NCBI GenBank assembly: GCA_001938485.1
Contig: MQRK01193510.1
Coordinates: 1 to 64,000 of the forward strand
DNA length: 64,000 bases
Source: Girardia tigrina
Taxonomy: Eukaryota
Direction: 5' to 3'
Position numbers and translations under genes: made by a program. Under the pieces are notes generated by a model. The model saw only the letters and a program-made list of their open reading frames with translations. It had not been told where the DNA came from and made no database searches. This document shows, in pieces, positions 3,978-57,766 of this stretch. Every line of letters begins with the position of its first letter. Position 1 is the stretch's first letter.

Positions 3978-5507
3978 ACTTGAAGCCAGACATTTACCTT
4001 CCAAAATGTATCTTGTTACAAATAGTTTTTTGGACCACAGTTTCTTTTCTATCTTGAGGTCTACTTTGCTTTTTTTGAATAGAAAAGATTATTTTGTTAG
4101 ATTCAAAGTATTATAGGGGATTTTTATTTACATTTGTCAGGTATTTTTATTAGAAAGTCAATAATCATGGGGTAATAAGAAAATATGTCAAAAATAATAA
4201 TTTTACGACTTGTATATCTGTAAAAATCAAAAACGTCGTTGTACATTGAGAAAAATACTCTGTTTAATTAAAATCCATTTGTGGTATATTGATATGACTC
4301 TCTGAAGATATAGTTCTCCATTACTTTTACTGTTTCTTTTAGTATTTTCTCTGCCAAAACATTTGAAAAAAATTATAAAACTAAGAATAAAAACTCACAA
4401 GGATCTGTCAGTTTAAAAAGTAATATAATATTAATCAGTTAAGTAATTTTCTCGATAAATAATCGCCTTTATTATCTTACAAAATCATTTAAACCATATT
4501 AAATAGAATCATTGTAATATTTGTATTTTCTAAAAATAATTTTCTTTCGAAAAAATTCCTGGAAATAAATGTATCATCATATTTGCTGTCTTCAATCATA
4601 ATATAAATCATTATATAAATAAAAACTTTGTATTTTATTATTCAAATATGTATTTTGCTGTCCTTTATTCAAACAACCACGTTTTAAGAAGGTGGATTTG
4701 TTTTTAGTTTATGTAATACATAAAAAATAACTAAATAAATTTTCATATTTAATATTTCAAAAATCACAAAACATTTTTATAATTCAATGTTCATTATTAA
4801 AACCTAAGAAATATAATAAAATATTTTTATCACAATAAGGATCTTTTATTCCATTATACTTTTGAAATAGGTTTGTTATCATCAAATAGCAGACTCCTTC
4901 TTGAACAATGGTTCTATCTTTCGTCTGAATCACGAAGCATAACACTCGAAAATTAAAAAATATTTTCTGAGAATAGAAATCGTAAGCTCAAATTGAATAT
5001 TAATTCTATAAATTAAATTGTTAACAAAAAGTTCAAAATTTCAAAGTTCATTTTATCTTCATCTTTTCTATTAATATAATTATTAAATATATGTTTTAAT
5101 TTTTCAAAACATCTAAATCAAGATACAATATTAAATTTTTCTTATCATTTTCGACTTTCAAATAAGGAAAATAGTACATTAAATTAGGAACTAAATATAC
5201 AAGGTTTGACGTGATATTGTTCTGCCGGGTTATCTGTATCATTGCAATACCGCTCATCAAGATTCATTCATCGAGACTCATTGTTTGATATCTCACCTTG
5301 ACTGCAGGTTCACTACTCCCAAAACCTTCACACCAACATTTGTAGCTAGGCCTTTAAGTAATTGATTGCTAGTCACGTTAAGAATACGATCACTTCCGGG
5401 TTTCGAACAGCAGACGGATACAGCCTCAATACTTAAGCCAAGAGACGAACTCTAGTTTCTCAGGGATACCATTTGAAATTATGTTGCCAAAGCAACTTAT
5501 CCCCATG

Positions 5508-6323
5508 AATATATGTGTGGGTATCTAATCTATTTCGAATGATATTGAGCCACTATGCTCTTTAGAGGGTTCACCCAAACTAAAGAGTGCTAGATGCCCC
5601 CCGATAGGCCTCCTACGGGGACGGAGTGCTTCAGTCTCCAAAATTTCTTGGGCTCCCCTGTTGCAAACGACCAATCATGGATTTTGGTACCATGATTGAG
5701 CATCCCTTTGGCTGTATTGTTGGACTTGGGACAGCCGCGACAGGGACAGTTGAACTCTCCCCTCGCATTTGGATCTGCGATCCAAAAAGACAAATGTGTA
5801 TTTTCGGGACAAGTCGTTTGCTTCACCACCGTTTAAATAGTCGGGGTGACTGTTGCTGGTTGAAATTCGGTCGTTTGGATGAATGTGGGTTCTTCGTTTC
5901 AGTCTGGATTGTCGCTTCTTCTTTTGGATCGCGCTGATGATTCTGGAGGATGTTAATTGATATTCTCCCTCACTTCTATTCGATGATCTTTACTCAGATG
6001 CCTCGTGAACCATCCTTTCGTTTTGTAACTTTTGCCGCATTTGGTACATTTGAACCGTTTTTCATCTTTTGGGAGCTGAAACTGGATGCTTACTGAGGAT
6101 TCCGTGTGATCCCGCTTGAGATGTCTATTCAACTTCTTTTGTTTGACGAAATCCTGAAAGCAACATTCTATTCTACATTGAAGGAGTTTATCTTTCTCAT
6201 TGATTAATTTCGGCAGATCGGCTCTTGTTTTATTCTGCTTCCCTTCTCTTATTAAGGAGTTTATGTATTGCTCTCTTTCTATAGTGGGGTCTCTGTGGAT
6301 AATGTGGTGTATGAAGTCTCCAT
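5508..6323 (-). mobile_element. LINE copy B: 5'-truncated 3' end with three C2H2 zinc fingers and 3' UTR
   Basis: Minus strand reads LQCRIECCFQDFVKQKKLNRHLKRDH, FKCTKCGKSYKTKGWFTRHLSKDH and GEFNCPCRGCPKSNNTAKGMLNHGTKIHDWSFATGEP. The 3' UTR is homologous to that of copy A (6460-6545). Confidence 0.85.
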
Positions 6324-6452
6324 ACGTTGCAAGATGGAAGCTGCCTCAAGATTAACAGACTGGCTTACGCGGACGATCTCTGTCTGATAGACACCAACTG
6401 GAACCATCTTATCAGAAAACTAAATCTACTGAATGACTCATTTGTAGATTTA
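6324..6452 (+). mobile_element. Inverted LINE reverse-transcriptase fragment
   Basis: + strand QDGSCLKINRLAYADDLCLIDTNWNHLIRKLNLLNDSF (YADD catalytic motif), opposite in orientation to both flanking LINE copies. Confidence 0.85.
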
Positions 6453-6459
6453 AGACCAA

Positions 6460-9400
6460 ATATGTGTATATGTGTGGGCCTCCAATCTCTTTCAATGGTA
6501 TTGAGCCTAAGGCTCTATAGAGGGTCCACCCAAACTAAATTCCTTAAGGGCTTTCGTTAGGCCTCCTACGGGGTCAGTGGCCTTCCGCCTCTGAGCAGTC
6601 GGTTTGCCAGTTATAAACGTCCAGCCACGGAACTTGGTACAATGGCCATACATACCTTTGGCTGTTACGGTGGACGCGTAACAGCCAAGAAATGGGCACT
6701 TGAATTCTCCACTTGCTGTCGAGTAGTCGACTGGCAGTCGGTATTGCAGGTACGGCTTTTCTTCTGTATCGTCATTTGTCTATATCCTCGACATACTCAC
6801 AGTTGCGTCCGGTAACTGAGAGTTGGATTGGTTTGATGTCGGCTCTTTCTCGTTTTCTCTTTCCCCGTTTTCTTCTCTCTGGGCGTTGGATATTGGCGGT
6901 TCTTGGTGATTCTTCTGAATGTGAATCCTTAGGAATCCAGCATTTTTGTATTCCTTCGGGCAATGTTATTTCTTTTCTCTTTGTTTTCGCGGGATTGAGT
7001 CTGCTCCATCGTGATCTCTTCTGAGATGCCTGTTCAATTCCTTCACTTCTGCATACTGTCTATGACAGACATCCATCGGGCAGCTGTATTCTTTTAAACA
7101 AGATAACACCAGTCTCAGTGTTTTCTCGTCCCCACTCCTTTGAATTCTTCTCAGTCGGTATATCTTCTCGATCTTTCCATCCATCTTCAGTAGATTCTCT
7201 TGCAAAATGTCTCTCTTAAATTCCCCCAAAACTACACTCGGCCCCAAAGAGCCAGTGAGTGTCCACTCTGAGACATTCTGCCAGATGTTGCTTTTTCCAA
7301 CCGCTGATCTTCTTTCCTCCGATGAGTTCGCATCCACTGATCTGTTTGACGTTCTCTGGGCAGTCTCCTAAATCGATTTTGACATTGTGGATGATTCTTC
7401 TCCGCGCAATGATATCCATTGGGCTTTTTAGTTCAATAGATATCTCATCCATCCTGATTCTTTCAGCTTTTAATATCCCCAGAGTTCGCCGAGTGCACAG
7501 ATTGTGAAATGCTTTCAGCTTTTTCACGTGTGCTTCGTTTGTTTTCCAGTTTTCACAGCTGTAGTAAACCACCGGGAATACACAGTTGTTAATTATATTC
7601 TTCTTGTTCCGGAGAGACAGCTTGTTGTTCTTCAACACTGGTCTGATCGTTCGTAGTTTCGCTGTTTCTTTCTGAATCGTGGCCTTGATGTCCATACCTG
7701 AGTTTCCCCCACTCTCAATTATCGATTACAGGTAGCAGAATTCGTCCACCCATTCAATTCCGGCATTCAACTCGTTCCTTGCCGTAATGTATTTTGCTCC
7801 ATTGAGATTCAGGATCTTCGTTTTCCCAATGTTTATTTTGAGCCCCATATTCAAGAACGCAGTGTTGAGACTCGTCAGATTTCTTTCGATGTTTCCAAAG
7901 TCCTCATCCAGTAAGCACAGGTCATCTGCATAAGCAAGCCTGTTCATGGTCAGTTCTTCCCCATTGTAGTTCAGTTTCACACAGCTTGATAGTCCCTTTT
8001 TGATTGCGGTGTTAATTGCATGATCAAAGACAAGATTGAATAATAGAGGTCCTAATACGCAACCTTGGCGGACTCCTTTGTCCATTCTGAACTTATCCTT
8101 TCCTATGCTGCCCGTGAAACATTCATGAAACTTCATGATAATGCTCAGCATTCGATTCTGTATTCCAATTCCTTGAAGACAGTTCCAGAGAACTTTCTTG
8201 GGTACCCTATCGAATGCCTTTTCAAGGTCTATAAAGATAGCAAAAACATTTATATTCCGGTATCTGGCCTCTTCTTGTATCTTTCGTATGATACCTATTG
8301 CATGCGCCGTTCTTCTTTTTGGTTTAAAACCAGTTGTCCAGTATCCTTTAAAGATGTGGCATTAATCTATTTGCAATGATTCGGGCCATGATCTTTCCTC
8401 CTATATCAAGTAGGAATATTCCTCTATAATTGTTGAGTTCCTTCTTGGACCCCTTTCCTTTGTATAGGATCACGACCTTCGCCGTTTTCCAAGCCTCCGG
8501 GAATTTCGCTCTTCCCTCCCATATGTCCACGAAACATTACAGGATCTTTTCAGTTAACTGGAGACCGCCCCACTTATATAGCTCTGGAATGATACCGTTG
8601 TTTCCAGCAGCTGTACTGTTCTTCAATTGCCCCATAGTACTTACTTCTTCTAAGTGCGGTGAGTAATCGATGTCTAGTGTTTGGTTCTGTTCGATATCTA
8701 CGATATAATCTCTTTCGCTCTTCTTGAATAGATGTGAGAAGTGCTCAGCTAACACTTCGCTTTCACAGTGCTCTGCACAGTACATAGAGGGGATTCCTTT
8801 GTTTCACTATTGCTGAGGACTCTGAGTTCCGTGTATAACTCAGAAGTCTTCCCCATACATGTTCTATTGAGAATACCTTCTATCTCTTGTCCGATTTTTT
8901 CAATCCTCTCTCTTTTCCACTTCCTCAGATACCGCAAGGTGTTCAATTTTGAAGCCTTCCATATTGAATATGTCCTTTCACATCTATTCTGAATGTACTC
9001 CTTCTTTCGTTTCCATTTCTCCTGCAGTAGTGGTTTCAGTTCTTCTAGGTGCCCGTGTATCCACCTTTGATCGAGCTGGATTTTTTTCTTTCGGTATCTT
9101 TTCGTGGTCTTTAAGATGACCTTGTCCAAGTCATCCAAACTTTAGACATTCAGACAAGCCTGCCCTATGTCACTACATATGGCCACTTTATTGTTCTGCA
9201 AGGAGAACCTGTCAATTTTCCCTTTACATTTCTTCTTTCTATCGTTTGCCAACTTGAGTATCTTATTGTTGTTGGCGATCCATATCGTTAACACGACTAA
9301 ATCGTGGTCTGAGCCGCAGTCAAAGTTTGGATAACATTTGACGTTACTTATTCTATTGCATCTGCTCTTTTGCGACAGGAATAAGTCCAATAATAGCCTT

Positions 9401-9868
9401 TTCTTCGTTGCTGGGTGTGTCCAGCTAGTTCGTTGCGCCAACTTGTGTTTGTAGAAGGTGTTCTCTACTCGTAAGTTGCACGCGTCGGCCAGATCTATTA
9501 ATAGACCTCCGTTTTCTGATGTTACTGTTGAACTATGTAACACCAAACTTTTTTACCATTTTCCACCGTCCGATTAAGTCGACAGTTGAAGTCGCCTCCA
9601 ACTATCAATTCGAATTTTCTCTTCTCAGCTTGAACCGTTGCCCTTTCAACATGTTCATGCAATGATGCAAAGAAATCCTCCTTTTCCTCACTTGAGTATC
9701 CGCTGTGAGTCGGAAATGTGATCGATATTTGGGGTATGTGAGATAGGAAAACTCTCTCGCTGATCTATTTATATTCGATATTCATAGAATCTTTTGATTT
9801 TAACATCATGGCTACGCCTCTTACTCTTGTGCCACTCGTACTGCTACTAAGCACGATGACACTGTAGA
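6460..9868 (-). mobile_element. LINE copy A (RTE/CR1-like): APE endonuclease, RT and C-terminal C2H2 fingers; frameshifted and 5'-truncated
   Basis: APE motifs 'GVAMML', 'IVGGDFNCR', 'SWTHP', 'GSDHDLV'. RT motifs 'YKGKG..NYRGIFLL', 'GVRQGCVLGPLLFN', 'LAYADDL', 'FCYL'. Fingers 'YSCPMDVCHRQYAEVKELNRHLRRDH', '(C)PKEYKNAGFLRIHIQKNH', 'GEFKCPFLGC...GWTFITGKP'. Ends in a CACATA-type short tail. Confidence 0.92.
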
Positions 9869-10073
9869 ATCATTAGGTGCTCCGACGGACGTCGGTCGCC
9901 CATGCAGTTAGCGGAGAGAAGGTCCTCAAAGTGCACTGATGATGGTTTTCTGCGACTCAGGATTATTGCTTGTTGAGATCCATGTACGGTGTTGCCGATT
10001 CAGTGTTGAAGTATTCTTGAAACTCCATGAGAATGGATGGTGGAAGGTTGGCAGTGACGTGAAGGAATTTCAT
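9869..10073 (-). mobile_element. Ty3/gypsy-type gag fragment
   Basis: KFLHVTANLPPSILMEF...TPYMDL/KQAII...FEDLLSANCMGDRRPSEHL (one frameshift), matching the gypsy gag pattern 'PY..LK.AI...LGDR(R/K)PS.LL'. Confidence 0.7.
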
Positions 10074-10156
10074 AATCTAATAATTTTTTCTAATGATTAA
10101 AAATAATTTTTTAATGTAGCAAATGCAGTTTACAAGTTTGTACTTGTAAAGTTATT

Positions 10157-11553
10157 ATTATTAAAGTTATGGGAATAATAGCCAAAGACAACATAACATG
10201 CTTTTCAATCCTAAACAAATCTAATTCAAGAAATTTAAAATGTCTAATATCGTATTAAGTTTATTACAAGAAATCATTAAAATTCAGTTTTATTATTAAC
10301 CCATTAAGTAGCAACTTTGAAAAATAAAGAGAAAAAGTTTTTTTTAAAAAAGTAAAAAAGAAAACTTTTAAATAAAAAATCAAAAATGTGAGCAACGGTT
10401 TATATGAAATGACCAAAAGGGTAATGAAATTATTTAAAAAACTAAAACTACATGAATACAAAAATATTTTTTTCGTAATGTCCTATAAATAGTTCGCTGG
10501 GTTATAATGGGTTAAGAGAGAAATACATTAATATGGTTTTTAAATGAGAGCATATTTCCATTCTTTTTATGAACTATAGGTATATATATATATATATNNN
10601 NNNNNNNNNNNNNNNNNNNNNNNNNNNNNNNNNNNNNNNNNNNNNNNCCATGGAATTTAGTAACCTGTTTTTGAAGGCTTTTTACTCAATCGATTTTCTT
10701 CAAACTTCGCCCACTCACTCATTCTCGATGACAATAAATGATTATGTAAAAAACTTTTTAAGATCCCAAAGTGGGAAAAGAAGGAAAATTCTGGGTTCCA
10801 GAACAATATTAATTGCAAGATATCTACTTACAATTTTATAAGTAGTTTATATTAATTTTATTATATTTTTAATTAAAAGTTGTTAAATGTTAATTTTTTT
10901 AAATTTTAAAAACTTTGTTGGCAAAGTAGAGTTCTGTCTGCATAAAGAATGGATATAGAAATTTTAATTTTTGATTTACTAGTTTTGTATTTTGTTATCA
11001 AAACATCAACAGTTAAATATTTTGTTTGGCTGAGTGATGTTGTTGGACCATTTAGTACCCATACTCTAGTCGCGTAAACTGGTGACTAATTGTAACAAAA
11101 AATTTAACCATGATTCGCGAAAAGAAGGACCCCTTGTTTTAATTTATAAGTTAACACACGAAATATTTTTTTTCTAAGGAAAACAATCCACTAAAATATT
11201 TTTCGTGAAATTGTCTTTCTATTTAAATATATAGTTATCTGTATTTTATTTTTGTATGTATAAGTTTTCAATAATTATAAAAGTAAACGTTGTTTACAGC
11301 CAAAATATTAAGTGTTTGGCATTATTTGGAAATTTCAATCTAATTTACATTTCAATAGTAATTCTTTTGAGAGAGGAATTGAGGAATTACTAAATGTAAG
11401 TTCTTTAAATTTCAAAATGAAACTTCAAAATTTATTTTCAATATTAAAAAAATTAAAACAGCATTCAATATTATCATTTGTTATTCTCCAAAAAATTATT
11501 AAAGTTATGGGAATAATAGCCAAAGACAACATAACATGCTTTTCAATCCTAAA
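10157..11553 (+). repeat. Perfect 59-bp direct repeat pair (10157-10215 and 11495-11553)
   Basis: attattaaagttatgggaataatagccaaagacaacataacatgcttttcaatcctaaa is present identically twice, about 1.34 kb apart. Confidence 0.9.
10296..10515. mobile_element. piggyBac-type MITE
   Basis: TTAA-CCCATTA ... TAATGGG-TTAA ends; non-coding AT-rich interior. Confidence 0.6.
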
Positions 11554-12181
11554 TAATATGTATTTGCTTCAATAATATGTGTATTCCTAATATGTGTATT
11601 ATTACATTGTAATTTATATAATAAAACCAAATTTTTTATTCGTGTATATTATTTCCTATACAATATTAATTGAAGTTTAAATTTATATATAATCATAATA
11701 TATTAGACACGTTCTTCGTATGAAAGATAATTGTTGCAAGACGGTTAGATAGTTGAACGTATTTGGATTGCTTGTCAGCCCACTGATTACACTAACAGTG
11801 TGACCCAAGGTTTACTCTATTAAGTCCTGTTGAGGATTTAAATGATTGAATAAGGTGTAAATAGTTTTTTTGATGACAAGCAATATGCGACTAAAATAGA
11901 TTGTGATAACCACCGACTGAGTTATTTCCCTGAGACAAACATTTAGCAAAACTTTCGTCGATCGGCATATCGATTTTGTCTCAAGCGACAAATTTTGTTA
12001 TTTTTCCTGTATTTATATAAATATTTGGAAACCATCTGGACAACTCTCCTTCAGATCATCAAAAGCTACATTAAAATCTTCTGAAAGACAAAATATTAGT
12101 ACAAAAACATATTTGATATATTTTAATGGCTTTGTCGTCTTGAGACAGATTAGATAAACTTTCGTTTTGTATTCGTAACTA

Positions 12182-13390
12182 TTAGGTTGTTCGATATGAA
12201 ACGGGTCAAACTTCACACCTTACATTTCAATCGCGTATAACTTAACTTTGAACTATCGTATGAAAATAAATAAGGTATTTCTTGACAGATANNNNNNNNN
12301 NNNNNNNNNNNNNNNNNNNNNNNNNNNNNNNNNNNNNNNNNNNNNNNNNNNNNNNNNNNNNNNNNNNNNNNNNNNNNNNNNNNNNNNNNNNNNNNNNNNN
12401 NNNNNNNNNNNNNNNNNNNNNNNNNNNNNNNNNNNNNNNNNNNNNNNNNNNNNNNNNNNNNNNNNNNNNNNNNNNNNNNNNNNNNNNNNNNNNNNNNNNN
12501 NNNNNNNNNNNNNNNNNNNNNNNNNNNNNNNNNNNNNNNNNNNNNNNNNNNNNNNNNNNNNNNNNNNNNNNNNNNNNNNNNNNNNNNNNNNNNNNNNNNN
12601 NNNNNNNNNNNNNNNNNNNNNNNNNNNNNNNNNNNNNNNNNNNNNNNNNNNNNNNNNNNNNNNNNNNNNNNNNNNNNNNNNNNNNNNNNNNNNNNNNNNN
12701 NNNNNNNNNNNNNNNNNNNNNNNNNNNNNNNNNNNNNNNNNNNNNNNNNNNNNNNNNNNNNNNNNNNNNNNNNNNNNNNNNNNNNNNNNNNNNNNNNNNN
12801 NNNNNNNNNNNNNNNNNNNNNNNNNNNNNNNNNNNNNNNNNNNNNNNNNNNNNNNNNNNNNNNNNNNNNNNNNNNNNNNNNNNNNNNNNNNNNNNNNNNN
12901 NNNNNNNNNNNNNNNNNNNNNNNNNNNNNNNNNNNNNNNNNNNNNNNNNNNNNNNNNNNNNNNNNNNNNNNNNNNNNNNNNNNNNNNNNNNNNNNNNNNN
13001 NNNNNNNNNNNNNNNNNNNNNNNNNNNNNNNNNNNNNNNNNNNNNNNNNNNNNNNNNNNNNNNNNNNNNNNNNNNNNNNNNNNNNNNNNNNNNNNNNNNN
13101 NNNNNNNNNNNNNNNNNNNNNNNNNNNNNNNNNNNNNNNNNNNNNNNNNNNNNNNNNNNNNNNNNNNNNNNNNNNNNNNNNNNNNNNNNNNNNNNNNNNN
13201 NNNNNNNNNNNNNNNNNNNNNNNNNNNNNNNNNNNNNNNNNNNNNNNNNNNNNNNNNNNNNNNNNNNNNNNNNNNNNNNTGTGTTGACAACATGGGGGGA
13301 TATTTTGATTAAAAATAAAATGTTATTATTTAAAAAAAATCGATTTACATTTTACTTTAATTTTGACCCGTTTCATATCGAACAACCTAA
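12182..13390 (+). mobile_element. Young mariner element; interior lost in an assembly gap
   Basis: Perfect 29-bp TIRs TTAGGTTGTTCGATATGAAACGGGTCAAA flanked by TA. Transposase C-terminus CVDNMGGYFD* follows the gap. About 1.2 kb long. Confidence 0.9.
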
Positions 13391-15149
13391 TACAATGATT
13401 GAATAAGAGCAAATATACCATCAAATATCATTATATCAGGAAACACTATAGACAGGCCACTGATACTACTATTTCAGAATCTATCGAAACACTGGAAAGG
13501 ATGAAAGAACATCTTTGCCCAAGAAAATTCTCGAATAGCCATTCATAGTTGAATTGCATTTCATTACATAAATTAATGGATTTTAACATAAGTGTATTAA
13601 GAGACTAAATTACGCCAAATAAAAATCTGTGAAATGCATTATTTATTAATTACTGCACAAAGTTTCCAAAGATGAATTATAAAATTGGAACATAGATTTA
13701 TGAATTATTTGTTTTATTATAGTAATTATTTTAATTTACAAAAAATTATTCAAAAACATGTTTTTATATAGTCGAAGAAAGAAAAAAGCATATTTAATTA
13801 GTCTAATAATGTTTTGTAGAAATTAATTTTTATAATAATTGTGTTTGGAATTTAATTTAATTTTATTTGTATTTTTATTATTGTTTTTGTTAGTCAAAAA
13901 AATCATAAATCCATTATATGTGCCGAGTATTATCATGTATATGTTTGGGGACAAATTCGATGCTTGAAATGTCTCCATTGGTTGACCAATCAGAGCGAGT
14001 TTTGTGAAAGACAGTAATCACTAAAATCTCTATTGTTGACTTTAAATGCATGAATTTTTGTATAAATTACGTATAATTTTATGAAATATAAATTTATTTG
14101 AAATTGTACGAATTAATGAATGAAAATATATTTTAAATCGAACGAGTTGGTTTAGTTTTGATTTTATTTGCGAATTCAAATATTTTTTCCGATTGAGTAG
14201 AGTTTTTGATTTGAATAAACATTTGTACAAAATATATTTTTCATTTTGTTCTGATTCTCTTTGAGACTGAAATATGAATTCTGTTTGATTTGAATTGATA
14301 ATTTCTAAAAAATAAGTAATGATCAATCTAAATAATAAATTTAATTGGGCCCTGCACGATGACAAAACGTCCGTGTTTCGATCGCACCACCACTGTATCT
14401 TTGGAGCAGTCTAATGGGACAATTTGTAAAAAGAAAATAATTAATATTAATTAATACTAATTTTTATTGTAAAATAAATTATTTAAGTTAGAAAATTTAA
14501 CATAATATAAAAAACAATTAATTATCATAAACAATTTTAGTTTTTGTTTTATTAGTTATTGAAATATTTAAATAAAAAAAATATATTTTTTATAGTAAAA
14601 AACATTGTTTTGAAAACAAATTATCATTTTTAAATATCTTATATGAAATGCTTTTCGGTATTTTCTTTAGAAAATTATATAAATAATTAATGTTTCCAAT
14701 AAAATAATTTTTAATTAAATTGATTAAATGAACATCTACAAATTATTTTATCGTGAAAATATATATATGAAAATATTAAAATATTAGTATTTTTAAATAA
14801 ATATTTTTTAGTGTTTTAAGTTATTTCCATACAATTAGAATTTTGATCAGTATTCTGTGTTGGATACAGACTCCTTTTTCGTTTTATTTTGTTAATTTTA
14901 AACTTTTGTTCTATCAATGGACGATCCACCTTGTTGATGTTCTGATGTGAACAAAACATGTTGTGAATTGTGAAATATTTAATTTCATTCCACACAATTA
15001 TGAATTGTAATATTGATGATATTTAATAAAATGATAATTTTAGAGACCTATAAATTAAATTAAATAGAATTTTTATAATAATATTAATGTGAAAGTTTGT
15101 TTATTTTTAAAACTTTATCTTCTGAAACATCTTTTGATTGATTGAGAAA

Positions 15150-15965
15150 GAAAGAAAAAAGCAGTGATAACCTTTTTCAATGAGATGATAATTGAGAAAG
15201 ATATACCTTTTAAGGATGTTTATTTGACTTGTCAATGCTCTCGTGTCACATATGAATCAACCATATAGACACGTTTGATTGATACGTCTACACATAGCTT
15301 AAAAAATATTAATTAAATAATGATAATAATTCAGTGGAACTGAAAGAAACATGAACATTTGAAGCTCGATGTGAAGAAACTGAAAGTTTTTTACAAGGAC
15401 TTATTTTCGGAATCTTAACGTTCTCATAAATTTTAGCTCAAAATTATGTATACAACAAATATCGTTGTACATCGAAGATAGGATTTATTTGTTTAGGAAA
15501 GGTAATCAAAGAGAAGCAACCCATCACCATAGAATTCTGTAAATAAGTTATAACTTTCTCCAAATACAGTGTTTTTACCACATATTCATTCAAAACTAGA
15601 ATTTATCAAGCATTTTGTATTAGCTTTACATAAGCAAGACATATGTTTCCAATGGGTTTGCTTAGAGCTTTCAGTTGAAAGTTAAACTAAACTTAAGGAT
15701 GGTGTTTTTGATTGTACTTAAATTCGAAAGGTTATAAGAGATAAGGAAACTGTTGCAGTTATGTCGGCAAAAGAAAAATTAATATGGATGGCACATAAAT
15801 TAACAGCTAAATGCTTCTCGGGAAACCATTATTCCATTAATTACAAAATATAAATTGACAACATCAGTGATAATATTGAACAATATCAGCAAGAAGTCAA
15901 GAAAAATAAAAATTGGTATCAAGATCAATGGAATGTAGCAATGATGGCTTATTACTCTTAGTTAT
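15150..15965 (+). mobile_element. Chapaev3-like (CMC superfamily) transposase relic
   Basis: Degenerate motifs recognisable as 'IKL..IKHFVLAL', 'KLKDGVFD..IRKVIRD', 'FSGNH', 'ISD..EQYQQE...WYQDQWNVAMMAYY' (family consensus VSDE.GERFHQ..RYQG.W...M.DYCW). Confidence 0.6.
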
Positions 15966-16529
15966 TTTCCAGGCGCATTCCTTCAGTGTTACTACGTTTC
16001 ATCCATCCAAAACTTTACAACTGATTGTCTTGTTTTCTGAGGACTATACAAACGAAAATTCTCATTTTTGTTACATATTCTCCCCCTTTTGATATTCATT
16101 TTCTAACAGGATAAATATACAATATTTAATAACTTATTTCATTTGATTTGATATATAAATTAATAACGAATTTAGAAAGAGAACCTATGAAGAAGGTATA
16201 TTTGCACAAAAATCATACAATGGTTTTTCAATTGCTCCTGCTGAGCTCAATGATTTAAAAATAAAACGAAATTTATTTAATATAATATTAACATTTCAAT
16301 ATTAAATTAATATTAGGTTTTGTCCATGTTATGTTCCACATACGATGTTCCACTCGTATGTTGCGCACAAATTGGTAAATAAAGTAGTTAAAACTCAAGA
16401 TCTCCATATACCCTTGCGAGCTCTAATAGTCTAAAAGTTTGTTTCATTGAAAACAGTGTTTAAGTTTTTAAAAAGAATAATTATTCTAGTGCTATTCTGT
16501 TTTTATATAATTTAATTTTATCAGTTTAT

Positions 16530-18480
16530 GGATGCACTGATGGTGCAAGGTCTGATCCGAATAATTATAGAGGGATCTTCCTCTTAGAAGTCACCGGCAA
16601 ATTTTTTTTTGCACGAATAATCGTACATAGAAATAAGCAGGTGATGAAAGAAAGGTTAGACCCTTGGCAGTTTGGTTTTTGGACAAAAAGAGGTACTATG
16701 CAAGCTATAAGTATACTCAGGCTGATACAGGAAGGAGGTTTATATATGAACCAGAAGGTATTTGTGATATTCATTGATTTTGAAAAGGCATTTGATAGTG
16801 TCCAACGTGAAGTTCTGTGAACCTGCCTGAAATGATTCGGCTTGACGGACAAGATTTTCGACATGATCAAGGAATTTCGTGAGAGCTTCTTTGCCTCTGT
16901 GGGGCATTGTGAGTTTCTCATGGAAAGAGGTGTCAGACAGGGATATGTAAATAGACCCTGTCTTTTTAACTTGGTCTTCGATGAAGTCATCAAAACGGCG
17001 ATACTGAAAGAATTCGGGGGAGGAATTACCCTGATCGACGAGCATGGTGACGAATTTCAAGTCAATAGACTTGCTTATGCAGATGATATATGTATTAGTG
17101 ACTCTGATATAGATCGTGCTGTAAAAACTTGAATATACTTAGAAGCACATTTTCAGAATTTTGGTCGACTTTTAGTGCATCTAAGACGAAAGTCATGTAC
17201 CTAACTGATGACTCGGGGACTTGAATATCGCAAGTGATGTCTGGTGAAAAATTAATAGAATGGGTGAGCGAGTTCTGTTACCTAGGCAGTATATTGACCC
17301 AATGTGGTAGCTGCAGTCGGGATATCGGTCAGTGGTTGCGTTGTGGAATGAGTAAGTTACGAGAATTGCAGCCTGCGATTCAAAGTAACCGAGTTCCTAT
17401 AGCGCTGCAAAGAAGACTAATCGAATCAAGCATTTTTTCAGGCAGTGTATTATTGGAGTGAGTGATGGGCAACACCTGAAAAAGAGGTAGCCTGGCAACA
17501 GATTTTTCATAATACCTGCACACGCACTGCTCTTGATAAAACTAAACTTGACAGAATACGTAATACGGATATGTCAATTAGTTTAACCGAGGTTCGTGCG
17601 GTACTGGTGAAATGACGTATTGTATTCTTTGAGTACAATAGACGAAAAGGTGTACATAAGGTTAAAAGGGTATTAAACTCTGAAATGGCCTCAGGAAATA
17701 GAAAGGTCAGCTGTCGTAAAAAGCAGTTGATGAAAGAGCGTATCGCCCGTGATAAGCTCTGGTTATTTGGTGGCCAAGAAGATCTGGTCGAATACCAGAA
17801 TGCTTTAATGAGTGAGAAATTCTCGACACTGACGAGAAATTCAAACTCCTAATCAAAGGAACTGTGTCTGATAAATTGACAGAAGTGATTGAACAAGGAA
17901 AAATGTTCCCGAAAATGCTCCAATCGCGTATCAAAAGAGTGCAATGCATGTATCCTTCTTGTTTCAAGTCTTTTGCAGAACAGAAGGAACTAAGACACAT
18001 CAAAAACACGCATACGGTCATGACTTCACAGAAACAGAATGGTGACAAACTATTCCAGTGTCCCATGGAAAATTATCACAAGACGTATAAAACAGATGGA
18101 TGGTTAAAGCAACATTTATTGATCGATCACCGAACTCAAGGCAGTACCAGTGGTACTAGTGCTTCACAAAAAAACGTATATAAATAAAATGTACGTACAA
18201 AATCTTCGAACCCAATCGCAATGCATGATGTGTCAGTGCCCCTCGACGGTACCGCGAAGACGGACTCAGGAGTAATTCCAAGGGTGGTTCTCGACTTGCG
18301 ATTAAGTAATACAAATGATGTGGGGATATTTCGGTTTCCCTTTACTCATTGTACGAAACGTGTTTACGCAGCCAAAGCTCTACAGAATCACGTTACGAGG
18401 GATCATGGCTGGTCCTTTCTGACTAGGAAACCGAAGCGTGCCCGTGCACTGAAAGCTCGCATTCTTGCATCTTAAGCCGT
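16530..18480 (+). mobile_element. LINE copy C (same family as A and B): RT and three C-terminal C2H2 fingers, degenerate
   Basis: 'DPNNYRGIFLLEV', 'FIDFEKAFDSVQR', 'GVRQGYV', 'LAYADDIC', 'FCYLGS'. Fingers CMYPSCFKSF..ELRHIKNTH, FQCPMENYHKTYKTDGWLKQHLLIDH and GIFRFPFTHC..LQNHVTRDHGWSFLTRKP. Confidence 0.9.
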
Positions 18481-22285: not shown

Positions 22286-23538
22286 TATTAGATTTTTGCA
22301 AAAGCAATACGGATTTTTGAACCTAAACTTTAAACAAATGTAAATTAGCGCAGAATAAACTTTATTAATCGAAATAAAAGCAATCAGAATTAATACATTT
22401 TTATCAACGAGAAACAAGTTTATTGGTGCCCCTAGTGTAGAATTCCTCAGTTCTGGATGCAATAAAAGCGGTAAAGGTATCTTTGGCGTCGTCTTGGTTT
22501 TTGAAGCATTTTTCCGGAAGGAAATTGTCCAGATGCTTGAAAAAATGGTAATCGGTAGGCGAGAGGTCCGATGAGTAGAGTGGATAGAGAGTAACTTTTG
22601 TAGCCCAATTTGACTAGCTTTTGCAGAGTTGATTTTGTGATGTGTGGCTGAGTGTTGTCATGGAGGAGAATTGGTTCATTCATATTTACCAATCTTGAGC
22701 ACATACGTTGGAGTTCGTCATGCATTTTGTAAATTATGTGGCAGTACTTTTCTGCGGTGATCGTTTCACCAGTATTCAGAAAGCTGAGATGGAAAAGACT
22801 GGCTGCAGACCACCCAACAGTCACCATAACCTTATTTTGGTGGAGTTTCGGTTTCGGAAAGTGGTGAGGAACCTCATCGCTGTCCAACCATTTTACTAAA
22901 CACCGCCAATTGTCGAAGAGAATCCGATTCTCATCACACGTTACAATCCGATCGAGAAAGGGGTCGTTCTTGTTGCACAGAAGAAGCGCGTAAGACACCT
23001 CAAAACGACGATTTTTTTCTTTCATTCAATTTGTGAGGCACCTATTTATCGAGCTTTTGTGACTTTCCAATTTGTGCCAAGCGATATTTGAGGGATCAGT
23101 GTTTAGCTCTTCTGTGAGTGATCAAACGGTTGTGCGTTAATCGGCTTCCACCAGCTCTTTCAATTCATCGTAGTAAATCGTCGACGGGCGTCTACCATGA
23201 GGCTCAACTTCCAGGCTGGTATTGCCAGAGGTGTACCGTGCATTCGTTGACACTTCCCTTGCCCTAAATGTCGTTGATGTTTCAAGTGATTATTGCTGAA
23301 TTACATCCTAGGTTGAACTCGTAGATGTAAAATAAAAATCACGTTTTTACATCTGGAATTAAAATCGAAATTAATAACAAAAGAAACATTATAATAAGTT
23401 TTAGACAAATATATCTGAAAGAGTATAAATTTTGAATGACTTTTGAATGACTCATAACATCACAAATGCTTTAGTCGTATAACATTCCGGTAAATACAAA
23501 AAATCAGAAACCGGAATTCTTTTTGCAACAACCTAATA
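22286..23538 (-). mobile_element. Degenerate full-length mariner
   Basis: ORF 22447-23025 has 'FLDRIVTCDE', 'KVMVTVGW' and 'ILLHDNTQPH', with shifted 'DLSPTDYHFFKHL'. Diverged TIRs TATTAG(A/G)TT..TGCAAAA at both ends. Confidence 0.88.
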
Positions 23539-39451: not shown

Positions 39452-39499
39452 GTTAGCTTGGTCTGAGGTATTAATAAATGGCATTTTTAATAATAATTT

Positions 39500-40075
39500 A
39501 AATATAGACAATTTTTTATTATTAAAATTATTTCCAAAACAAACGCGTTTCAGTGCAATGAAATAAAGTGATTAGTTTCTATTAATTAAATGTTACAAGT
39601 GCGAAGCGTTGTACATTGAAGAGACAAGTCGTCATCTCCGTACTAGAATTTCTGAACATACTCAATCTAGTAGAAATTGTTCGATATTGAGCCATATTAA
39701 AAAATTTGAAGATAATCTTAATGATAATAATAAGATTTTTAAGTGATTTTAAATAATTTTGACAAAAATTAAAAATATTATTGTCGAAACACTATAAAGC
39801 ATCATAAACCATGTTTAAACGCACCAGGTGATTCATCTAATCCTATTAAATTTTTAAAATAACATTAAAATATTTTATCAAAATATTTGAAATATCATTA
39901 AAAATCCTTTTTTAAAAAATCATGTTTTTTAGATGTATGATATCATTATTTTTTCAACTATATAAATAGTAATTAATTACTTTATTTCATTGCACTGAAG
40001 ATGACGTACTTGTGAAACGCATTAGTTTTGGAAATAAATTTAATAATAAAAATGGCCTTTCTTTATGTTTTATTA
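39500..40075 (+). mobile_element. Penelope-like element remnant: GIY-YIG fragment between inverted pseudo-LTR copies with a hammerhead relic
   Basis: KCEALYIEETSRHLRTRISEH at ~39597-39660. The arm at ~39962-40075 (contains CTGAAGA..GAAAC) is repeated in inverted orientation at ~39500-39585. Confidence 0.8.
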
Positions 40076-40552
40076 TATATATATTTATTTATCGTACTCT
40101 AAAATAAAAAAATTCTAAATTATCTTATAAATAAAAATGTTTAAAACAATCCGTGTAAAATATTAAAAGAATTTTAAAACATAGTTAGAAAAGACAAAAA
40201 AATAAATAAACAATTGCTTCTGTCCAAACATATTACTCAAAGACATTAATCTTTTGGCTTGAAAAATTTAGAAATATCAAACAAAACGTAATTCAGAAAA
40301 AACTAAGTTAAAAAAGATAGATTAATCTTGAATCAAATTCTTGATCAAAGAAAAGAAAAAATCTCTTAAAGTACATAGTATAATTCAAGTTTTTTTGTAA
40401 CTTTTTATTTAAAATTATTTTTTTTCCTTTTTCTGTAATTTTAATTTTTTATATTTTATGATAAATCAATTGTAATTTATGTTTGCAAAAAATATTAAAA
40501 AGATTTATTTTCAAAAATTTCCATTTGTATATCATAAATACGAATCCTTGTG

Positions 40553-46770: not shown

Positions 46771-48456
46771 TTAACCTTTAACTGGATAGAAGAGTCTCTT
46801 GGACTCTTTATTAACCGTGCGTAAATCAAAAAAAATATACCATTTTCCGGTCAATTTAGTCTTTTTGCCAACCAATTTAGTCTATGCTAGCATAAATTTA
46901 GTCTTTTTACCAATCAATTTAGTCTTTGCCAATCAATTTAATCTTTTTTGCAAATCAATTTAGTCCTTTAATAGGTAATAAATATTTTAATATAAAATTT
47001 AATAATTAACGAAAAAAACCAAAAGTTAATTTATCATTGGTGAACATATGCTATACCAGCAGCAGCAATGACAAGATTCTGAAGAATGTAATGAAAGTAT
47101 CCAGAACAATCATTGAAAGTTACTGTCGTTGTTTCTGCCATTATTAATTCGGACAACAATTCCTTAATTTAGACCTAAGACATTTTTTTATTTTAGAAAA
47201 TGAATTCTCAATGGGATTTAGCATATAAGAATATGGTGATAAAAATTTAAATGTAAATCCATATTGGGTGATTATTCTCTGAATATCATTCTTCCTATGA
47301 ATACGTGCATTATCCAATATTAGACAGGCATTATTCATTCTTTTAACATCTCGCAGGTACCTGCAAAGTTCATCGACATAATCATTAAAAATATCAGAAT
47401 TAACTGTAGAATTGGAAATTGTTTTGCAAAATCCCATTCCATCAATTGTAAGGCTTGCTATTAAGGATATCGAACGCCCCCTGACAGCAGGCATTCTTAC
47501 AATTACTCTGGTGCCTATTCTAGATCTTCCATATGATCGCTTGAGATGTAAATTAAACCCGCTTTCATCAATAAAAACCACTCTAGAATAATCATTTTGA
47601 AAATAATTGCCAAACTATATAGCATATTGTTTTCTCATTTCGATTTTGTCAGGCATATTTACTCTATCAAACTCACGATGTGTTAATTTCATCGTAATTC
47701 TGAGTTCTTGAAGGCATCTATTGATAGTAGAAATAGAAACGACATGCCTATTATCAGATTCTATCTGCAGAGCTCTTTTAACTTCATTTAAAGTATATTG
47801 AGAGTTGAAAGTCACAATATTTTCAATTGCATTTATGATTTCTGGTGTTAGTATGGTTTTACTACTACCACCACTACTCATTGCTTCAGTTTTCCAGTTA
47901 ATTCATATGCTTTCAAAATAGTCTTCGCAGTACTATAGTTAACTTCTAATAATGTTGATGCTTCCTTAATGCTTTGGCCTTGCTCGTTTACAAGACGAAT
48001 CAAGCTTAATCGTTTTTCATTGGAAATAGAACAGTTATTTCTAGAGTTTTTTCTATTCCTGATAGATTTATTTGATTCATTTCCACTATTATTCTCCATT
48101 AAATTCAACCAATTTTTTTTAAATTCTTAAAAAGCGCGGGAAATCAGTTTTTAAAGTATTTTCAAATTAAAACTATTTTAATAACTAAATAAATTAAACT
48201 ATTTTATTATTAAAAGACTATATTGATTAAGAAAAAGACTAAATTGATTTGCAAAAAGATTAAATTGACCGGAAAATGGTATATACTAATTCAAATTCAG
48301 TTTTTAGCACTTTTTTTAACTAATCATGAATTTTATTAAACGTATGTTCGAATTTTCAAGGATTTCTTATGTATACATTCAATTTTCAGCTTAAGAGTCT
48401 TTCGGACTCTTCTATCCGTTTATGTTACAAAAACATTCTATCCGGTTAAAGTTTAA
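46771..48456. mobile_element. piggyBac-type MITE interrupted by a nested Tc1/IS630-like element
   Basis: TTAA-CCTTTAACTGGATAGAA ... TTCTATCCGGTTAAAGT-TTAA ends. The internal palindrome AAGAGTC..GGACTCTT occurs near both ends. Confidence 0.65.
46840..48279 (-). mobile_element. IS630/Tc1-like DD34E transposon, full length, transposase disrupted
   Basis: TIR CCATTTTCCGGTCAATTTA(G/A)TCTTTTTGC flanked by TATA, with subterminal AATCAATTTAGTC repeats. ORF pieces 47878-48108, 47615-47881 and 47144-47581 contain VFIDESGFN, LILDNARIH and PYSYMLNPIE (34 residues from D to E). Confidence 0.92.
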
Positions 48457-55116: not shown

Positions 55117-55744
55117 CTATTTACGATTAACATTAGAGATTGAAAACATAATTACGAAAATAAATCTATTGAGAACACATTTTCGACAAATTTCTTTGTT
55201 GCATTCATGGACAGGAAGCCGTGTCTCCATGTTTTTGGAAAGAGAAGAACTGTCTTTCAATTTATCATCTAAAGCACTTAGAGATTCTCCTCGTTGAATT
55301 ACATCGTTAATGCTTTTCCCTATAATTCTTTGAACGTTTAAATTAGAATTAATTTGAGTAAAATTTATTGGTGTTCGGTGTCTATATATTTCTTTTGTGA
55401 ATTTTGAATATCTTTATCGACCTCAATAAATACATATGATCTAGTTTACTGCCATATTTATTATGAAATTCATGGGATATCTCTTTCAAAAATTCAAATG
55501 CTCTTATCTTAGAAAATTCAATTTTAGTTAAGATGATACAACAAATTTCTCTACCAATTAAATCATGAAACATATATAGATCACTTTCTATGGAACAAAT
55601 TGAATGATATAAATTAGTCATTTTCTTAAGCAATGGTTTCGCTTGATTTTGATGACTATTTAAACTTATAATCTTTTCATCTTCTTGCATTGAAGCCGCT
55701 AACACCAGTCCATCATTTATTTTTAAATTTGTCAGCAAGATCAT
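55117..55744 (-). pseudogene. SEC22: SEC22 (longin R-SNARE) intronless pseudogene
   Basis: MILLT..INDGLVLAASMQEDE..HQNQAK.LLKK matches the SEC22b N-terminus. After frameshifts it reads 'VQRIIGKSINDVIQRGESLSALDDK..SSLSK' (SNARE motif). No introns; the transmembrane tail is degraded. Confidence 0.88.
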
Positions 55745-57766
55745 TTTTAAGTTTACGTAGAATTATTTCACAAATTGCCAAAAATACTGGAGAGCAAAAA
55801 AAGAACGAAAACCGACGAAATTTTTATTGTTCTCTATCAAAAACCCCCAACCGATTAAATACAGACTTTTATTTTTAATTCAAACTCTTTTTTCAAATTG
55901 TGACAAAATTCATATTTTCAAAATATAAACCTTAGCACACACACAATACACACTCTCAACCAATCAAATTAAAAAATGTACATTCACAATCATTACTCAC
56001 AAACACAGTCCATTCACACAACAATCAAACGAATGAAATACATACTTGCATTGTACATTCATTCAAAAAAAGGAGGCTCATAATTTGATTTAAATTATAT
56101 TCATTGTTTTACCGAAATGAAATAATTTACTTTCAACGAATATTTTTTATTTTGAAAGTTTTGCTGATAATTAATCAATTTGATAATTAATCACATTCAA
56201 ATTGTGAATTAACAAAGAAATCAAAACCCGATTTAAACGATAAAAATGACAATGAATCGAATTTCAGACAATCTTGCAAAGATTTCTTTCACAATTGGCC
56301 TCAGTTATTGTTAACGAAAACAGAAATTAACGAAATGATCAATTTTACGATTATTTAATTTAATTGTTTTTATATTTAATTATTTTATTTTAATTAAATT
56401 GATTTATTTAATTATTTTAATTTATTAATTTAATTATATATTTTATTTATGAATTCCTGAAACTGGCAAAAATGTTCGGTCAAATCGGCAATTCTCCGCT
56501 CCAATTCATTTGCCATGAAAATTGATCTTGTTTTACTTTTTCAATTTCAACATTATTTACTTATTTAAGACTTTTCCTTTGGATATTTTATGATAATGAT
56601 TCAAAATATTTTTGTAAAATCTCCTGGAATTTATTTAAATAACGTTCATATTTGATATTAATAAATTTTATTGAAAATTACGTTTGTAATCCTTGACAAA
56701 CAGTAATATTATCTTAAGGTAATCGATCGAACTTTTTTTTATTTATAAAATAAATATTTATTATGTTCAGGTAATTATTAAAGTTTTTTTAAAATATTAT
56801 CACTATTAACTTTTATATAAAAAACTGATATCTTTTTCTCATTTTGTCATCTTATTTTAGCAAATTCATAATTATTGCATTAAATGTTATTCTATTTAAT
56901 TATAAATAATTACATGATAATTAGCCTTCCACTTTTATTATTTTTATTATTATTGTTCAATAACAATTATTGTTAATTAATGGAAATATATTTATTTTCT
57001 AAATATTAGAAAGGCTTTTGTGTAAATTATCAATTATTATTATTATAGACTTAAATTAATATTATTATTTATTCGACATTATATAAATATTCTTTTACCT
57101 TAAATACAACTTAATTGTTTATTATTACAACTATTCTTTCAGTGACATTGAAATAAAGTTATTTGTATATACGTTTACTAATTTATTTTATAAAATAATC
57201 TTTTACTTTTAATATTAGAAATAATATTAATAAATATATTGTTTAATTTATAATAAAATCAATTATTTCTAAATAAAAACATTTTCTGATCCATTAAAAA
57301 TGTCTGCTTCTATAAAATATAACAGAAATGGGAAAATATAAAATCCGAAAGTCGATTCGCATGATGTGAAATGTGCATTGTAACTAATTGAATATTTTGT
57401 TTTAAAAATTTCTGCAATTTCCGTAAAATTTACTACTTACATATAAAAATATTAATCTGATTATATAATTTTTAATAAAACATTCTAATGAATTTATTAA
57501 TATATTTGTCAATTACATCACACAAAAATATTTATTAATTATTTTAAATAAATTAAAGTTTTTTGGGTGCAAATAAATAATATCAAATTATATTTATTTA
57601 TTTATATTTATTTTTTTTACAAATAATAAAACATATATCTAAAAAGTAATGAAATAATTTTCAAACGAAATTTACGTATTTAAGTTTGGAAAATGTAATT
57701 AATATATCTTTTATATCAAAAAATGAATAAAAATGTAATTAAAGTTAATAAAATTTGCTATTTTAG

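Follow-up and report, generated by a model that had tools for sequence, protein, structure and literature searches.

An apparently unnamed RTE-type LINE lineage with three C-terminal C2H2 zinc fingers, represented by decayed copies in Girardia tigrina

The window analysed here is a 64,000-nucleotide stretch of Girardia tigrina DNA (contig MQRK01193510.1, positions 1 to 64,000). Searches with intact relatives by tblastn, together with Pfam and translation, identified three decayed and mutually diverged copies of an APE-RT LINE (called A, B and C here), confirming the three copies and positions given in an earlier note on this DNA. Copy A (~6460-9860, minus strand) is a near-complete, 5'-truncated and decayed single-ORF element comprising APE, RT, thumb, three fingers and a 3' UTR. 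It aligns with residues 22-1145 of an intact relative, P0001, in five tblastn pieces of 71-89% identity, with 7 stops and 4 frame changes. The APE endonuclease (9145..9857, minus) corresponds to P0001 residues 22-133 and 135-392, the first 21 P0001 residues being absent. The Pfam family Exo_endo_phos_2 is weak on this piece and above the cut-off on P0001. The RT and thumb lie at 7460..8656 (minus; Pfam RVT_1, E 1.4e-21); in the alignment behind the tree they reach 89% with P0001. Finger 1 (F1; 7008..7085, minus) retains an intact C-x4-C-x12-H-x4-H. In finger 2 (F2; 6903..6965, minus), the alignment places a 12-codon deletion that removed the first Cys; at this site a contig from run X2 carries an extra 37 letters. 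Finger 3 (F3; 6588..6707, minus) carries a W-S/T-F-x-T-G-x-P extension, and its last His is gone. The copy ends in a 3' UTR with a short CA/TA-rich tail (6460..6543, minus), in which 65 of 77 bases are identical to the 3' UTR of B. Loose contig ends indicate that other copies stop at the same 3' end.

Copy B is a 5'-inverted insertion placed exactly in the tail of A. Its 3' part (5510..6330, minus) holds three fingers (~6103-6207, 5980-6054 and 5647-5754, minus), the ORF end and the 3' UTR, and matches residues 459-703 of the intact protein P0225 at 83% identity. The inverted 5' part (6324..6452, plus) is, on translation, an RT piece around the YADD motif, and matches P0225 residues 212-254 at 86% identity. 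This geometry is that of twin priming. B is not simply a 5'-truncated copy, and the inverted piece is absent from the earlier note. An 8-base direct repeat around the whole of B (5511..5518, the second at 6460-6467) is a candidate target-site duplication inside the tail of A. The repeat overlaps the shared tail and may represent tail homology instead of a duplication. Tail pairing has been proposed for RTE insertion (PMC6007223, excerpt) and would account for the position of B. No target-site duplication was found for A or C. RTEs characteristically end in a short, microsatellite-like repeat; the 3' ends of A and B have a short CA/TA-rich run, and no more than a few repeat bases are seen at loose contig ends. 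At the ORF end that A and B conserve, a candidate hairpin did no better than shuffles. Copy C (~16530-18472, plus) is 5'-truncated and heavily decayed, with RT (Pfam RVT_1, E 4.7e-20), thumb and three damaged fingers at 17915-18016, 18050-18133 and 18338-18445 (plus). Its F1 has a one-residue helix deletion, and one Cys is missing from each of F2 and F3. The closest intact relative of C is P0075 (50% identity in RT), and the two are tree sisters (100/95). Rfam gave zero matches within the window. A longin ORF of the window, used as a query to place the host broadly, gave no match.

The fingers were detected with held-out profiles, trained on 24 relatives from outside the window copies' own clade. 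Nine sites score 12.6-36.2 bits, in the order F1-F2-F3 in every copy (31.9, 12.6 and 26.0 bits in A; 21.4, 22.6 and 36.2 in B; 21.5, 24.3 and 29.1 in C), and the rest of the window gives nothing at 8 bits or above. On 137 LINE proteins from outside the lineage, the maximum is 14.4 bits. The layout of F1, F2, a long low-complexity linker and F3 is common to all three copies, as the earlier note had described; the fingers are not intact throughout, five of the nine being damaged. The conserved terminal motif H-x-W-S/T-F-x-T-G-x-P in that description was overstated. The strict form is found in one of the three window copies (B) and in 4/38 lineage proteins, and the F3 terminus is fitted by a broader form, N-H-x4-H-x-[WFY]-[SN]-x2-[TS]-G-x-P-x-R.

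Intact relatives are present among metagenome proteins, at 88% identity for A and 83% for B. These and 36 further clusters make up a lineage set of 38 proteins. In an RT-only tree the lineage forms one clade (36 of 86 rows, support 97/83) inside an RTE-type group of 82 rows (99/99), which includes AviRTE-motif proteins and insect proteins named DUF6451 or CFDP2. With references labelled by motif, the RT is placed with RTE sequences and apart from CR1/L2-like and RTEX-like RTs. The AviRTE motif was observed in the sequences, the other reference labels are provisional, and no Repbase consensus is among the rows. A sister relationship to a branch of single-finger proteins (FastTree local support 96) was unresolved in the careful tree and was not retained. 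The RT motif R-[GS]-I-[FW]-L-L-[DE] occurs in 35/38 lineage proteins and in none of the 137 others; the APE motif W-x-H-P-x-T occurs in 20/38. Pfam finds APE and RVT_1 on intact members. No RNase H family was found by Pfam in eight lineage proteins, and no such domain is seen in the full-length model. Our search of the literature found no description of a three-finger lineage, and keyword searches of PMC3391268, PMC3894237, PMC4035085 and PMC3185411 brought up nothing of relevance. The lineage is apparently a deep, unnamed branch within the RTE group, judging from these sequences. The suggestion of an undescribed lineage thus stands as regards a distinct RT clade; finger-bearing APE LINEs as such were already known. 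The best explanation of A, B and C is that they are dead copies from three subfamilies of this one lineage.

A genome scan identified a lineage member in one of 80 loci (L082). No member was found among the 80 loci listed in a metagenome scan with generic RT patterns, or in a viral sequence scan. Runs under other organism codes in which the lineage holds a small share were set aside as evidence of habitat. L082 is a single ORF of 1162 codons starting at base 222 of a 3725-base contig, with no ORF1, and it contains the DNA of the intact member P0072; contigs of this kind may be missing some 5' sequence. A 5' HDV-like ribozyme occurs in some RTEs. In L082, bases 93-171 match drz-agam-1 with 26.7 bits, short of the gathering score of 37 (E 0.023 and 0.0025; one element only), and the ribozyme-like fold pairs 7/7 positions in P1, 7/8 in P2, 4/4 in P3 and 7/7 in P4. 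The 5' ends are absent from the window copies.

F3 is present in 27/38 lineage proteins. Three of the 11 proteins without it also lack F2, and truncated gene calls are possible for some. At 25-65% protein divergence, the helix residues are nearly constant: K2 (32/35), E3 (24/35) and R6 (30/35) in F1, G2 (33/34) and W/F3 (29/34) in F2, and K2 (25/26) and N6 (23/26) in F3. The inter-finger linkers measure 11-100 and 27-119 residues. Two to six K/R within 14 residues downstream of F3 form a basic tail in 26/26 proteins. Between A and B, the fingers have pN 0.32 and pS 0.74 over 80 codons (pN/pS 0.30-0.61, bootstrap), with synonymous sites close to saturation; in the linker control, placed by a protein-guided alignment, pN (0.48) is also below pS (0.71). 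On these codon data, the fingers are under purifying selection. Between P0001 and P0051 the identity is 67% in RT, 60% in F1, 66% in F3 and 19-22% in the linkers, and F2 of P0001 is only 26-38% identical to members beyond its own subfamily. Across the lineage, the fingers thus appear to be conserved about like the RT, and the linkers do not. The earlier reading of the fingers as a functional nucleic-acid-binding module is supported as far as a conserved functional module goes; of the two roles it offered, target choice is disfavoured and recognition of the 3' UTR is unproven.

A finger model shows three confident fingers (pLDDT 91-97), disordered linkers and extra strands past the F3 helix. 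Foldseek with this model gave no match at E 0.001, and a second fold search had a best VIA Z of 3.7, F3 being barely covered. The ESM Atlas returned generic C2H2 clusters and an unnamed 54-member cluster with RT plus zf-C2H2 and without taxa, which are leads only. The position of the fingers cannot be read from the full-length model (pTM 0.64).

C-terminal fingers are not confined to this lineage. One to four are present in 20 of the 137 other LINE proteins. The remaining 117 have none, and the fingers are therefore dispensable for target-primed reverse transcription (TPRT) generally. The octopus RTE (RTE-2_OV) has one C-terminal C2H2 finger (PMC9115989), and L1Tc has two, in a domain that prefers single strands and RNA and acts as a nucleic-acid chaperone (PMC2805920, excerpt). 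The case for novelty is weaker than in the earlier note; given these one- and two-finger elements and the 20 proteins, what is new is this specific combination of three fingers within RTE. Single-finger RTEs (RTE-2_OV, AviRTE-like) resemble the lineage in having a single ORF with APE and RT, no RNase H and the W-x-H-P APE motif, and the distance from YADD to the first finger is comparable (252-370 residues in the lineage, 274-296 in single-finger proteins). The lineage differs in its three specialised fingers, as against one S-R-I-G-L-x-S-H finger in the AviRTE-like branch. The two occupy separate tree branches, and the AviRTE H-P-R-S APE motif (T-W-x-H-P-R-S-K) is found in 11/13 single-finger proteins and 0/38 lineage proteins. 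L1Tc/ingi elements are alike in their single APE-RT ORF and several C-terminal C2H2 fingers with basic flanks; L1Tc has a 5' HDV-like ribozyme, for which L082 holds a candidate. L1Tc differs by its RNase H (PMC5814959, excerpt) and two fingers, whereas the lineage lacks RNase H and its RT is RTE-like in a tree containing no ingi sequence; the likeness is probably convergent. A-clade R2 likewise has three fingers, ZnF3-ZnF2-ZnF1, each with a distinct binding mode, one touching template RNA and the others target DNA (PMC12180492, excerpt). Those fingers are N-terminal and tightly packed, and R2 has a Myb domain and a site-specific, C-terminal restriction-like endonuclease. In the lineage the fingers are C-terminal and loosely tethered, APE is at the N-terminus and copies are dispersed, so R2 offers an analogy only. 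Human L1 ORF2p is the top PDB match in sequence and fold for the APE-RT core (16% identity). Twin-primed 5' inversion is characteristic of L1, and B shows this geometry; L1 differs in having ORF1 and a CCHC C-terminal domain.

That this is an RTE-type lineage with functional fingers is very probable. As an overall explanation, we favour, at somewhat better than even chances, such a lineage in which the fingers serve as separate nucleic-acid clamps in TPRT. An active element would encode one ORF of 1080-1500 residues, arranged APE-RT-thumb-F1-F2-linker-F3-basic tail and preceded by a short 5' UTR with a candidate HDV-like ribozyme fold as seen in the single full DNA copy. It would move by TPRT, an established pathway, into dispersed sites. 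The three fingers would be independent modules on flexible tethers with one fixed job each, gripping structure and not family-specific sequence. They would keep the template RNA and the nicked target DNA together and promote annealing or strand exchange, in the manner of the L1Tc C2H2 domain and of the additional fingers in A-clade R2. F3 is predicted to be an extended finger in which W-S-x-x-T-G-x-P adds a small hairpin ahead of the basic residues, and of the three it is the best candidate to contact RNA or single strands. Some branches have lost it, so it would be an accessory. This clamp mechanism, drawn by analogy, we hold to be about as probable as its opposite.

A reading in which the fingers, F3 chiefly, recognise the 3' end RNA of the element itself (ORF end and 3' UTR), giving cis-preference as in stringent LINEs, is unlikely. 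The A and B 3' UTRs agree as noted above despite near-saturated synonymous sites, so the UTR is either constrained or was recently swapped together with F3, in which pS is lower (0.54, against >1 in F1). ZnF3 of R2 reads template RNA bases (PMC12180492, excerpt), but L2 elements bind their tail between EN and RT (PMC4176376, excerpt). The C sequence has no resemblance to the A and B UTRs beyond that of shuffles (scores 32 and 44, shuffled means 36 and 40; C is decayed), and the UTR folds no better than shuffles (z -0.1 to -0.9), with 1 of 22 consensus pairs covarying in two sequences. Because the helix residues are constant across the lineage, without subfamily variation, the fingers may read the 3' UTR in a family-specific way, but this is unproven. 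Still less probable is a role in protein contact, with the fingers docking back onto the RT/thumb or linking the complex to chromatin or to a host factor that is conserved. Single C2H2 fingers commonly bind proteins. The invariant G-W of F2 and the K-E-x-x-R of F1 would be odd in a base-reading finger and are conserved in the way of a protein interface, and weak structural neighbours include the protein-binding fingers of EEA1, NDP52 and FOG-1 (Z 2.6-3.3, not significant). However, the basic helices and tails suggest nucleic acid, the lineage hosts are probably diverse, and the full-length model has no apparent fixed dock and lower confidence in the fingers.

Reading of target DNA to steer insertion would be consistent with the classical ββα fold, with the top Foldseek matches being DNA-binding fingers (E 0.005 or worse) and with B lying exactly inside the tail of A. 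We nevertheless regard it as very unlikely. A Krueppel-type array needs short TGEKP-type linkers, which occur in 0/38 lineage proteins; the linkers are long and variable, F2 has G-W at base-reading positions, and run X1 contains thousands of contigs, with mixed 3' flanks (agreement 0.60-0.66 over 40-56 contigs). A triplet-reading array is accordingly not favoured on linker grounds, and sequence-based target choice is disfavoured by the linkers and mixed flanks together. The position of B is accounted for by the tail pairing cited above. Neutral carry-over of the fingers, or chance matching in low-complexity C-termini, is hardly credible. Decay of the window copies is even (A fingers 23/28, 19/26 and 31/39; linker 42/58), but this is post-insertion decay; the active subfamilies keep the fingers and not the linkers, which contradicts neutrality.

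A broader version of the clamp reading is speculative, and we would not expect it to hold in full. An unnamed clade-level RTE branch, spread through aquatic or host-associated eukaryotes for which little sequence exists and met so far almost exclusively as stray metagenome contigs, would have independently evolved a three-finger clamp, giving an APE element the equivalent of ZnF3-2-1 in A-clade R2, with a separate job for each finger. F3 would be a new extended C2H2 type, made up of the finger, the W-S-x-x-T-G-x-P hairpin and the basic tail. It would keep the template RNA in place at the nicked target, and its annealing activity would also give L1-style twin-primed inversions.

Single-ORF RTE elements are under development as gene-insertion tools (PMC13708176, excerpt). 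The lineage bears on how template and target are held in APE-type LINEs other than L1. It supplies intact natural proteins that share one RT backbone and differ in finger number (four, three, two or fewer), which allows the role of the fingers to be tested by comparison and deletion. For LINE classification the lineage adds a deep branch, and its diagnostic motifs help annotation and can flag bacterial MAGs contaminated by eukaryotic sequence. None of this alters the general view of retrotransposition.

Six-frame translation and self-comparison revealed three LINE copies in the window. Copy A (APE, RT and C-terminal region) lies at approximately 9860–6460 on the reverse strand. Copy B comprises a C-terminal 3' part (6330–5510, reverse strand) and an inverted 5' part holding an RT piece (6324–6452, forward strand), and copy C (RT and C-terminus) lies at approximately 16530–18472 on the forward strand. 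All three are dead; compared with its nearest intact relative, copy A has seven stops and four frame changes. The earlier note had described a common layout of three C-terminal C2H2 fingers (F1, F2 and F3, from N to C) in these diverged copies. Profiles trained on 24 relatives, with the window's clade and its sister left out, recovered the order F1-F2-F3 in each of A, B and C (12.6–36.2 bits), confirming this layout. They gave no other match of 8 bits or more across the 64 kb, and none of 137 other LINE proteins scored above 14.4 bits. A ligand or helix residue is lost in five of the nine window fingers, and the copies have decayed evenly relative to their own intact relatives, as expected of dead copies.

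With the RT of copy A as query, 33 proteins were retrieved, among them P0001 (88%), P0002 (80%), P0003 (57%) and P0004 (35%), which are uninterrupted ORFs of 1145–1234 residues with the same three C-terminal fingers. P0225 and P0077 (82–86%) represent the subfamily of copy B, and P0075 is the nearest relative of copy C. A five-sequence profile was searched against 1.84 billion representatives, and the best 150 matches were listed. Of 182 proteins, 173 had sufficient RT for a tree and nine were dropped. FastTree, run on RT columns alone (the 173 proteins, 15 of 33 locus RTs, P0225 and two window copies), placed all multi-finger proteins of the window's type on one branch. In an IQ-TREE analysis of 86 chosen rows, this three-finger branch (36 rows) is separate and supported at 97/83, rising to 99/93 when the deepest row is left out; support for the window clade is 100/100. 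The set was picked by a profile that includes the fingers; its size is therefore a lower bound, from biased sampling. The branch is nested in an 82-row group (99/99), which we take to be RTE from motifs, the tree containing no Repbase consensus. This group also contains insect proteins named DUF6451 or CFDP2 and proteins with the AviRTE APE motif (first approximately 400 columns of supplementary file 3 of PMC4844689). The motif R-[GS]-I-[FW]-L-L-[DE] occurs in 35 of the 38 lineage proteins versus 0 of 137 others, and W-x-H-P-x-T in 20 of the 38 (the APE is absent from many of them) versus 1 of 137. None of the 24 clusters looked up carries a eukaryote name; two are in bacterial MAGs, each on a lone contig of 3.7–3.9 kb, which we read as contamination. 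Eukaryotic LINE contigs binned into bacterial MAGs, species-representative genomes included, comprise L082 (the locus encoding P0072), P0071 and many of loci L081–L160. LINE-like RTs are encoded by 187 of the 427 pattern matches of the genome scan.

F3 was found by pattern in 26 lineage proteins, and a profile added P0074; eight others end after F2, one after F1 and two before F1, and one lineage protein has four fingers. The general form of F3 is C-P-x2-4-C-x8-24-N-H-x4-H-x-[WFY]-[SN]-x2-[TS]-G-x-P, with W in 16 of 26; basic residues come next. The stricter ending proposed in the earlier note, H-x-W-S/T-F-x-T-G-x-P, holds for copy B and four of these 26 proteins but not for copies A and C. 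Helix positions are fixed finger by finger: K2 (32/35), E3 (24/35) and R6 (30/35) in F1; G2 (33/34) and W or F at position 3 (29/34) in F2; K2 (25/26) and N6 (23/26) in F3. The inter-finger linkers span 11–100 and 27–119 residues, with no TGEKP linker in the 38 proteins. Between P0001 and P0051, identity is 67% in the RT, 60% in F1, 66% in F3, 30% in F2 and 19–22% in the linkers. Constraint on the fingers is also seen between A and B, where 80 finger codons give pN 0.32 and pS 0.74 (ratio 0.30–0.61, with synonymous sites close to saturation); the values are 0.48 and 0.71 in the linker and 0.33 and 1.06 in a 33-codon RT piece. AlphaFold2 predicts three ββα fingers (pLDDT 91–97) joined by disordered linkers. 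In this prediction, F3 is preceded by a helix and a strand, and its own helix is followed by a pair of short strands that include W-S and K-P. The core of the full-length model matches L1 ORF2p and R2, and the finger positions are not fixed by this model (pTM 0.64). In the LINE proteins P0033 and P0018, C2H2 fingers lie inside the RT/thumb region and not at the end. The RTE-type RTs of L002, L003, L005–L007, L009 and L011–L013 carry a PHD-like insert, rich in Cys, that separates the RT motifs from YLG; in one Atlas cluster, 48% of members combine RT and PHD.

The inverted part of copy B matches residues 212–254 of P0225 and the 3' part residues 459–703; they join over a 7-base overlap, and approximately 200 codons are absent between them. 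B begins at the final base of A's tail and has an 8-base repeat on both sides. This single case has twin-priming geometry in a non-L1 LINE; twin priming has been described for L1 (as cited in the part of PMC4476161 consulted). Recombination is another possible route to copy B. The target of B matches the element's own tail, in agreement with the tail-target pairing proposed for RTEs in the excerpt of PMC6007223.

The 3' UTRs of A and B are identical at 65 of 77 bases while their synonymous sites are saturated, which would reflect either RNA constraint or a later 3'-end swap. Copy C has no similarity to this UTR above shuffles, and no 3' RNA fold is better than shuffles. The last ten ORF codons (P-V-G-G-L-S-G-G; 5596–5626 and 6550–6580) show conservation in A- and B-type proteins that extends to the DNA, as though they belonged to the 3' RNA signal; a hairpin there is no better than shuffles. 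At loose contig ends of X1, a sequencing run with contigs on the window, the terminus is a short CA-rich run and the flanks are mixed (agreement 0.60–0.66), which points to dispersed insertion. L082 has a single ORF starting at base 222; its 5' UTR (93–171) matches two HDV-like ribozyme families weakly, under gathering scores, with complete or almost complete P1–P4 pairing. Some RTEs carry HDV-like ribozymes.

The window (26% G+C) is poor in genes and crowded with transposon remnants. In run X1, the flank 4800–5572 is present with no mismatches at depth 77, and 22,487 contigs map to 4800–10590. Summed depth, which is not copy number, ranges from 4e5 to 1e6 across the RT and the fingers and drops to 7e4 at the APE end; the A-type LINE is a high-copy repeat, mostly of 5'-truncated copies. 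GC-richer stretches flanking the A/B composite (5150–5500 and 9870–10100) are moderately repeated in X1, match no protein of this analysis and are possibly an older repeat entered by A. A 62-base direct duplication (10157–10218 and 11495–11556, 98% identity) lies upstream of A. The window also holds a mariner transposase remnant (22450–23025, reverse strand; Pfam Transposase_1), two Tc1/IS630-like elements with DDE_3 domains and terminal inverted repeats (46835–48284 and 58917–60747) and further inverted-repeat elements (39470–40092 and 62404–63665). An intronless 126-codon longin-domain ORF (55385–55762, reverse strand), presumably Sec22-like, gave no close homologue in a search and could be a gene piece or a retrocopy. 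A decayed coding remnant upstream of C (15500–16000, forward strand) may resemble a common invertebrate DNA transposon protein.

APE-RT proteins work by TPRT. Element anatomy, clade and finger constraint are established here from sequence, and we lean slightly towards a reading in which the fingers would act in TPRT as a nucleic-acid clamp or chaperone. Helix residues fixed across the lineage favour an invariant partner, be it a structure in nucleic acid or the surface of a protein, over family-specific sequence, and the basic character of the helices and tails speaks for nucleic acid. Contact with protein, which the fixed residues would fit too, is for this latter reason rather improbable. 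That the fingers read the cognate UTR is unlikely, if less so: RNA constraint is one option for the 65 of 77 bases kept in A and B, but the lineage-wide helix residues fit an invariant partner better, and L2 elements bind their cognate tail with the region between EN and RT (the portion of PMC4176376 consulted), which would leave the fingers free as a general clamp. A triplet-reading array is disfavoured by the long variable linkers and by G-W at the reading positions of F2; with the dispersed insertion indicated by the mixed flanks, these make targeting of a DNA sequence very improbable. Two tested cases, from extracts of the papers, come nearest to a clamp or chaperone: in L1Tc, the C2H2 domain has chaperone activity and a preference for single strands and RNA (PMC2805920, PMC5814959); in A-clade R2, the three fingers each bind differently, one gripping the template RNA (PMC12180492, PMC12503042).

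Families of this kind are usually deposited in Repbase/Dfam, and it is possible, though we do not expect it, that a named family already exists. A literature search with few subscription journals, and with Repbase/Dfam outside its scope, found no description of an RTE lineage with a three-finger array. Together with the separate clade, this favours the undescribed lineage suggested in the earlier note; its distinctness is tempered by an octopus RTE with one C2H2 finger, termed relatively rare in the section of PMC9115989 consulted, and by multi-finger C-termini outside the lineage (for example P0099, P0119 and P0191). The latter indicate that finger gain recurs in RTEs, among which the three-finger lineage is real, selected and probably unnamed.
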